Shown here: positions 31,479 through 31,602 of the stretch, piece by piece
Numbering within the stretch: position 1 is the first letter of the stretch
Layout of the letters: each line of letters begins with the position of its first letter
Source: a virus
Lineage: Duplodnaviria > Caudoviricetes
Length of the DNA stretch: 64,000 nt
Reading direction: 5' to 3' (one strand)
Virus record (IMG/VR): IMGVR_UViG_3300030095_006840
Span: 1-64,000 of that record
Made by a program: the position numbers and the translations under genes
The notes under the pieces: generated by a model
Seen by the model: only the letters and a program-made list of their open reading frames with translations
Databases searched by the model: none
Told to the model about the DNA's origin: nothing

Positions 31479-31602
31479 TGAAGTACCAAGCTCAAGATAG
31501 AAATATTATTGTCTATGAATTTTACTTCAATGGCTCTAATGAAGTTATAGAAATGAGCCTAGCTTTGTTGTTGCGAAGAAATAACAATCTTGAGGTACTT
31601 CA
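31479..31602 (+). ncRNA. unidentified structured RNA candidate (multi-stem, pseudoknot)
   Basis: Closing helices 31479-87/31594-602 and 31492-97/31588-93, two internal hairpins, and loop GGCTC complementary to GAGCC 31555. Confidence 0.55.

Follow-up and report, generated by a model that had tools for sequence, protein, structure and literature searches.

Comparative evidence for a conserved pseudoknotted RNA at the head of a marine phage tRNA/tmRNA cluster

What is encoded in the 124 nt that lie between a sigma70-like promoter and the tmRNA gene of a phage? Most large marine phages are uncultured, with non-coding RNAs that have hardly been explored, and an earlier note on this locus, made from the letters alone, had described a pseudoknotted RNA there and proposed a new non-coding RNA, ribozyme or switch that might process or complement the reduced tmRNA next to it. 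In this study, we analysed a window of 64 kb, which is the first part of a 103-kb IMG/VR viral contig with an estimated completeness of 57%, together with related loci. The alignments of these loci confirmed the element as a real conserved structured RNA on the + strand, and the overall interpretation of the earlier note was partly supported. The element is marked by unusually clean covariation, by its presence on about 100 ocean contigs and by its fixed place at the head of a tRNA/tmRNA cluster beside a predicted Fis-like gene.

Architecture and distribution of the element

The features of the locus are collected in Table 1, and the complementarities that had been listed for 31479-31602 were all found in place. 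The closing helix P1, extended by P0 in the subfamily of the window, encloses an AU-rich spacer, an H-type pseudoknot and hairpin B. The order of strands is P1 5', hairpin A, the loop of which is the pseudoknot 5' strand, pseudoknot 3' strand, hairpin B and P1 3'. The geometry is that of a classical H-type pseudoknot, with a stem 1 of 6-7 bp, a loop 1 of 1 nt and a stem 2 of 5+1 bp. Measured from P1 to P1, the element covers about 100 nt in the window and 100-135 nt in relatives. A coding function was considered and rejected, because the small ORF at 31478-31678 and the mini-ORFs that begin at the conserved AUG have no ribosome-binding site, and their frames and lengths shift with indels; the conserved AUG of the element was set by the DNA search pattern itself.

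Table 1. Features of the element and its neighbours, in window positions
Feature	Position	Strand	Remark
117-aa gene, predicted Fis-like C-terminal helix-turn-helix	31055..31408	+	tblastn, AF2 model
Sigma70-type promoter, TTGACA (31410), 17 nt, TAATAT (31433)	31410..31438	+	TG before -10
P0 5' strand TGAAGTACC	31479..31487	+	outer extension of closing helix
P1 5' strand UCAAGA	31492..31497	+	followed by conserved AUAGAAA and an AU-rich variable spacer to 31523
Hairpin A (P2), ACUUCA/UGAAGU	31524..31545	+	loop holds pseudoknot 5' strand
Pseudoknot 5' strand	31532..31538	+	GGCUC, bulged U31537, A31538
Loop 3 of the H-type pseudoknot	31546..31553	+	3' end is conserved GAAA
Pseudoknot 3' strand U-GAGCC	31554..31559	+	followed by linker UAGCU (31560-31564)
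Hairpin B (P3), 8 bp, 7-nt loop GCGAAGA	31565..31587	+	TTGTTGTT (31565) pairs with AATAACAA (31580); family consensus of loop GYGAARA
P1 3' strand UCUUGA	31588..31593	+	
P0 3' strand GGUACUUCA	31594..31602	+	
10-nt spacer UUUUAAAAAC	31603..31612	+	ends at predicted RNase P site, tmRNA +1
One-piece tmRNA, tag ANDNVAISLAA	31613..31857	+	ARAGORN; RF00023, 111 bits

With the upstream 117-aa ORF as query, 64 related viral contigs were recovered, and blastn found the 3' two-thirds of the element kept at the same position in the closer relatives. A degenerate DNA pattern made of the pseudoknot strands and hairpin B matched 27 viral contigs and 78 marine metagenome contigs, including those of TARA and the deep Pacific, and had 0 matches among 185,579 prokaryote genomes (one per species). 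The viral and metagenome contigs yielded 81 unique element cores. A covariance model built from nine sequences found a single copy in each locus, on the + strand in every case, and a single copy in the 103-kb record; in the more distant loci L032-L075 it found no copy at E <= 1.

Close relatives among known phages were sought by several routes. Neither blastn with the locus and with 6 kb around it nor tblastn with the 117-aa protein gave a match in the GenBank phage collection, and a tblastn search for cultured relatives with PhoH gave matches of at most 37% identity. A search of the 103-kb record with the Gp23 family gave no match, and its control was likewise without a match. Contigs of public runs from RNA libraries covered only conserved parts of the tmRNA. 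As a side observation, the window carries auxiliary genes on the + strand, namely a full-length malate synthase at 18670-20178 (Pfam MS_TIM-barrel, 4.9e-107) and a PIN-PhoH fusion at 33960-35282.

Covariation and strand

Folding energy, which the earlier note had named as a check, gave a modest answer. The minimum free energy of the 124-nt stretch was -30.8 kcal/mol, which is better than that of shuffles on the + strand (z -3.1), although the - strand reached z -3.6. For the single sequence the gain over shuffles is modest, and the comparative evidence is therefore decisive for the RNA structure.

For this comparison, MAFFT was used to align 76 different sequences taken from contigs of marine phages and metagenomes (alignment A4), and the helices of the earlier note were scored together with the pseudoknot. 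Pairing was present in 97.8% of the cells of P1, 95.7% of hairpin B, 88.9% of the upper stem of hairpin A and 100% of the pseudoknot; with the helix registers slid by 1-3 columns, 36-47% of the cells were paired. The covariation for which the earlier note had proposed to test homologous loci was recovered, with a score of 0.249 vs 0.122 in shuffles, a value reached by 0 of 500 shuffles. All four of these helices recur in the 76 sequences with compensatory changes.

The pseudoknot GGCUC/GAGCC is paired in 76 of 76 sequences. One of its pairs is G-C in 57 and A-U in 19 of them, another is C-G in 66, U-A in 8 and U-G in 2, and the search pattern had permitted non-complementary combinations at both of these variable pairs. 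A sixth pair, A31538-U31554, lies beyond the conserved bulged U and was free of any constraint from the search pattern; it is G-C in 36 sequences, A-U in 27 and G-U in 4, with 8 mismatches. Since kinship among the sequences can inflate covariation counts, a tree was built from the DNA of the neighbouring protein gene. On this tree, the G-C/A-U pair of the pseudoknot underwent 11 state changes, with both sides changing together every time; on well-supported branches, five of five independent pairs went in the same direction, and over the seven pairs tested about 18 went the same way vs fewer than 1 the opposite way. In addition, G-U pairs are frequent and many of them fit only the + strand, which identifies the + strand as the RNA strand.

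The other helices changed in a similar manner. P1 exchanges C-G for U-A and A-U for G-C, as in CAAGAU/AUCUUG, UAAGAU/AUCUUA and GAGAU/AUCUC. Hairpin B, which stacks directly on P1, has four pairs altered on both sides. In hairpin A, L080, L128 and L135 have CUCAC/GUGAG in place of CUUCA/UGAAG, and L007 has CUUUG/CUAAAG. Furthermore, loop 3 of many relatives contains variable inserts of unrelated sequence, all at the same point and each of them a hairpin. A mutual-information scan for extra tertiary pairs was dominated by subfamily signal in variable regions and gave none beyond the modelled helices.

Some parts of the earlier description hold for the window and its kin only. The outer stem P0 (TGAAGTACC at 31479 with GGTACTTCA at 31594) is present only in subfamilies, that of the window among them, and elsewhere different complementary strands such as AATAGCA/TGCTATT take its place; over all rows it is 65% paired, with 7 of 8 pairs changed on both sides somewhere. 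A second pseudoknot between AAGC and GCTT, a lower stem of hairpin A (TCTATG/TATAGA) and an alternative fold through the repeated TGAAGT/ACTTCA segments had also been proposed; the complementarities and repeats exist in the window and its close kin but are not conserved beyond them. The AAGC bases belong to an internal loop that most members do not have, and the TGAAGT/ACTTCA repeat is limited to one subfamily.

Genes and signals around the element

The upstream side of the element is nearly constant. The 117-aa gene lies directly upstream in 70 of the 71 unique loci with enough upstream DNA (tblastn), a count that takes in loci found by the DNA pattern alone. Its family comprises more than 586 homologues, all from marine sequences. 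The protein had no Pfam or PHROG match, and its profile gave weak matches to NtrC-DBD (E 0.17) and Fis (E 0.36). In the AF2 model (pLDDT 79), residues 61-112 superpose on residues 46-98 of Fis (Z 6.0-6.2, rmsd 1.6-2.4 A), and the top 17 rows of the structure comparison were all Fis; on this predicted structure, the C-terminal domain is Fis-like and putatively DNA-binding. Because cellular Fis activates tRNA and rRNA promoters, it is an attractive idea that the Fis-like protein might, by analogy, activate the phage's own tRNA/tmRNA operon.

A single nucleotide separates the end of the 117-aa ORF from the -35 box of the stable-RNA promoter. This near-consensus site is the best promoter-like site in the region, and TTGACA-17/18-TAnnAT was the top-scoring match in 67 of 75 copies scanned, with TG in most. 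The closing helix starts 9-35 nt past the -10 box in relatives and 55 nt past it in the window. The placement given in the earlier note, between this promoter and a tmRNA 10 nt away, is borne out by the tmRNA start, for which ARAGORN and Rfam agree on a one-piece gene (31613-31854/31857).

The downstream side is variable. Most of the 81 unique copies have tRNA-Gly(UCC) as their next gene, which starts 9-27 nt after the core and is often followed by the tmRNA within about 10-50 nt, and in about 10 copies, the window included, the tmRNA follows the element directly. No tRNA-Gly was found within the 103-kb record, and the window appears to have lost this gene, which brought the element directly against the tmRNA. 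The closing helix ends 3-20 nt before the 5' end of the tRNA or tmRNA. Co-transcription of element and tmRNA, as the earlier note had assumed, is well founded in the window, since the 10-nt spacer has no room for a promoter. The further suggestion of a specific functional tie to the reduced tmRNA was not supported: the next gene is mostly tRNA-Gly(UCC), some copies precede ORFs and have no tmRNA in the next 900 nt, and in L015/L172 a separate -10 box for the tmRNA (TGTTATAAT or TTATTATAAT) stands between it and the U-tract of the element.

Behind the closing helix, 48 of 76 copies have a T-tract, and the other 28, the window among them, are without it; after P0 the window has no more than U4. 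A scan of 30900-32400 found 0 intrinsic terminators, and the T-tract of the 48 copies lies behind a multi-branched domain, so that the element was rejected as an intrinsic terminator.

Insertions are concentrated in the short stretch that separates the element from tRNA-Gly/tmRNA (L002:3419-3829, L010:2326-2742, L080:820-1728, L104:754-1065 and similar). The inserted ORFs include cytidylyltransferase-like proteins of 135-138 aa (GYFDPxHxGH), a 302-aa SDR/epimerase-like protein and a family of small MKLTKxKLQxIIKEE proteins that is preceded by a -10-like box, CTATTTATGATAAT.

The size of the tmRNA also varies. It is mostly 235-253 nt in element-bearing phages (L002-L031) and 307-408 nt in relatives without the element (L032-L062), and in distant relatives the Fis-like gene is followed directly by the larger tmRNA. 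L030 (381 nt) and L031 (307 nt) have the element and a larger tmRNA together. This pattern is probably phylogenetic, but it is the one observation that fits the idea that the element complements the tmRNA. Five tmRNAs reach about 470-480 nt (L004:1622-2099, L005:3632-4099, L006:1500-1970, L010:2865-3339, L020:1493-1972), about 230 nt longer than their 240-nt kin, and ARAGORN either overlooks the gene or reads its tag wrongly; L010 and L020 showed no match to an Rfam intron family.

Possible roles and known RNA families

We tentatively favour the reading, to which we give somewhat less than an even chance, that the element is a self-contained stable phage RNA released from the leader of a stable-RNA operon and acting through its conserved unpaired bases. 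As the first product of the near-consensus sigma70 promoter that heads the phage's stable-RNA cluster, it would be freed in the window by an RNase P cut at tmRNA +1; in most relatives the cut would fall at tRNA-Gly +1. With its 5' and 3' ends paired in the closing helix, the freed RNA may persist as a stable RNA, and it would act through AUAAA, GAAA, CUAGC and GYGAARA, the conserved unpaired nucleotides of the element, where binding to a protein or to a second RNA is the most likely mode of action. What favours this reading is that the element starts at or near the predicted transcript start, has its ends locked in one helix and ends near an RNase P site. A constant upstream gene and promoter, a variable downstream neighbour and a single copy per genome also count for a self-contained unit, and since promoter and Fis-like gene stay the same while the gene that follows can be exchanged, regulation of one specific downstream gene by the element is unlikely. 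Two findings count against the stable-RNA reading. First, an ORF that directly follows the element (L002, L080 and others) offers no RNase P site, so that the element would stay a 5' UTR there unless another nuclease cuts. Second, 48 of 76 copies have a T-tract, as would equally be expected of an attenuator.

Such a cis-acting, riboswitch-like leader, in which the pseudoknot and closing helix would be stabilised by a ligand or protein and the U-tract would end transcription ahead of tRNA-Gly/tmRNA, is in our judgement unlikely. Many aptamers likewise combine an H-type pseudoknot with conserved bases at the junction and variable hairpins at the periphery, and the conservation of the element is aptamer-like; where the T-tract occurs, it stands right behind the closing helix and next to tRNA-Gly, too close for a second promoter. 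However, 28 of 76 copies, the window among them, have no T-tract, no anti-terminator or other alternative pairing is conserved (the TGAAGT/ACTTCA repeat being confined to its subfamily), the downstream genes are heterogeneous, the simple terminator scan of the window was empty, and no Rfam riboswitch matched at E <= 10.

Equally doubtful is a new functional RNA class, whether aptamer, catalytic RNA or protein-sequestering decoy, that would govern a translation-support module, with the Fis-like protein or a host factor as candidate partner. If this were true, a novel mechanism would set the output of a strong promoter that drives tRNA-Gly and tmRNA.

A general cis leader for whatever gene comes next, either modifying the polymerase (put-like or rrn-leader-like antitermination) or serving as a 5' stabiliser or processing module, seems to us a little less probable still. 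The element is always promoter-proximal, is indifferent to the identity of the downstream gene and heads untranslated stable-RNA genes, which are exposed to Rho; compared by eye, GGCUCUNUU weakly recalls boxA. The boxA reading of GGCUCU was nevertheless rejected, because these bases are paired in the pseudoknot and variable (GACUC in 19 copies, GGCUU in 10). Moreover, the element bears no likeness to catalogued antiterminator RNAs, and so many conserved unpaired bases would be needless for a simple stabiliser.

A self-cleaving ribozyme that trims the operon leader is very improbable. Small ribozymes are common near phage tRNAs, a hairpin loop that pairs with a strand further downstream, ahead of a second hairpin, gives a pistol-like topology, and CUGAUGA...GAAA, present in a subset of copies, looks like the core of a hammerhead. 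Yet the CUGANGA positions vary among the 76 sequences (CUAUUGA, CUGCUGA, CUGUUGA, CUAAUGA), which does not fit a hammerhead. As for pistol (RF02679), with which the element also shares an A-rich linker, its enclosing helix begins downstream of the first hairpin and has a G-U cleavage linker ahead of the 3' strand, whereas in the element the closing helix begins upstream of hairpin A and hairpin B abuts P1 without a linker. No Rfam ribozyme, hammerhead and pistol included, matched at E <= 10. An HDV-like fold, which is a nested double pseudoknot with a 5'-terminal P1 strand that pairs after P3, has a different topology. Of the ribozyme and switch proposed in the earlier note, neither a ribozyme core nor a switch platform could be shown in the element.

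That the element serves to complement or process the reduced tmRNA, perhaps as a pseudoknot domain split off from it, is just as improbable: in the window it adjoins the tmRNA and is co-transcribed with it, and the tmRNAs of its clade are mostly short, but the size correlation is confounded by phylogeny and broken by L030 and L031, the usual neighbour is tRNA-Gly and some copies stand before ORFs. We also rejected the element as a piece of the tmRNA itself, since the tmRNA starts at 31613 (ARAGORN, RF00023) and an nhmmer profile of the element had 0 matches in 26 phage tmRNAs of 235-480 nt; CUAGCUUUGUU has what we take by eye to be a short likeness to a stretch of E. coli tmRNA, which was not used as evidence. 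A tRNA or tRNA-like gene was rejected as well, with no ARAGORN or RF00005 call on 31479-31602.

The earlier note had failed to place the element in a catalogued family such as 6S, SRP or RNase P, and the covariance models of Rfam gave the same answer. At gathering threshold, Rfam 15 reported only tmRNA, tRNA and tmRNA_permuted in the window and nothing for the element; at E <= 10, 31380-31640 gave chance snoRNA and miRNA rows only, and at E <= 1, nothing fell on the element in eight relatives. A literature search gave no description of it. The element is absent from Rfam 15 and may be among the 10,006 unnamed candidate RNAs catalogued from IMG/VR (PMC10690425). It resembles those candidates, and manA and wcaG of Rfam, as an orphan motif of uncultured marine phages supported by covariation, but unlike manA and wcaG it is not in Rfam 15. 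With the SAM-II/SAM-V and preQ1 aptamers it shares a hairpin loop that pairs downstream, an A-rich loop 3 beside stem 2 and a marine setting; unlike them, its pseudoknot lies inside a larger closed three-part domain, the genes that follow are RNAs or unrelated ORFs, and no match to them appeared in Rfam at E <= 10.

The genomic context of the element fits the stable small RNAs of phage tRNA clusters, of the kind of RNAC and RNAD (species 1 and 2) of T4, which are small non-coding RNAs of the tRNA region with roles still unknown (PMC3014915; PMC9697503). The likeness is one of context, as small non-coding phage RNAs encoded with phage tRNA genes. RNAC and RNAD occupy another place in the cluster and are classed as late, whereas the element stands at the 5' end behind a sigma70 promoter; unlike T4, its phage has no close cultured relative that we found. 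The element is thus a defined and clonable candidate for learning what small stable phage RNAs do, a question that T4 RNAC/RNAD pose as well, and its consensus sigma70 promoter should probably allow expression and probing in E. coli without the native host.

A last observation concerns annotation. RF04321 (tmRNA_permuted) matched 31563-31733 (+) with 53.2 bits, above its gathering threshold of 47, on what is a normal one-piece tmRNA plus upstream sequence. The element aligned only to the largely deleted 5' part of the model and the tmRNA part carries the score, which also argues against the element as a partner of the tmRNA. In relatives this false match takes in tRNA-Gly, which makes it an annotation pitfall; a covariance model of the element would put an end to blank annotation or spurious permuted-tmRNA calls at such loci.
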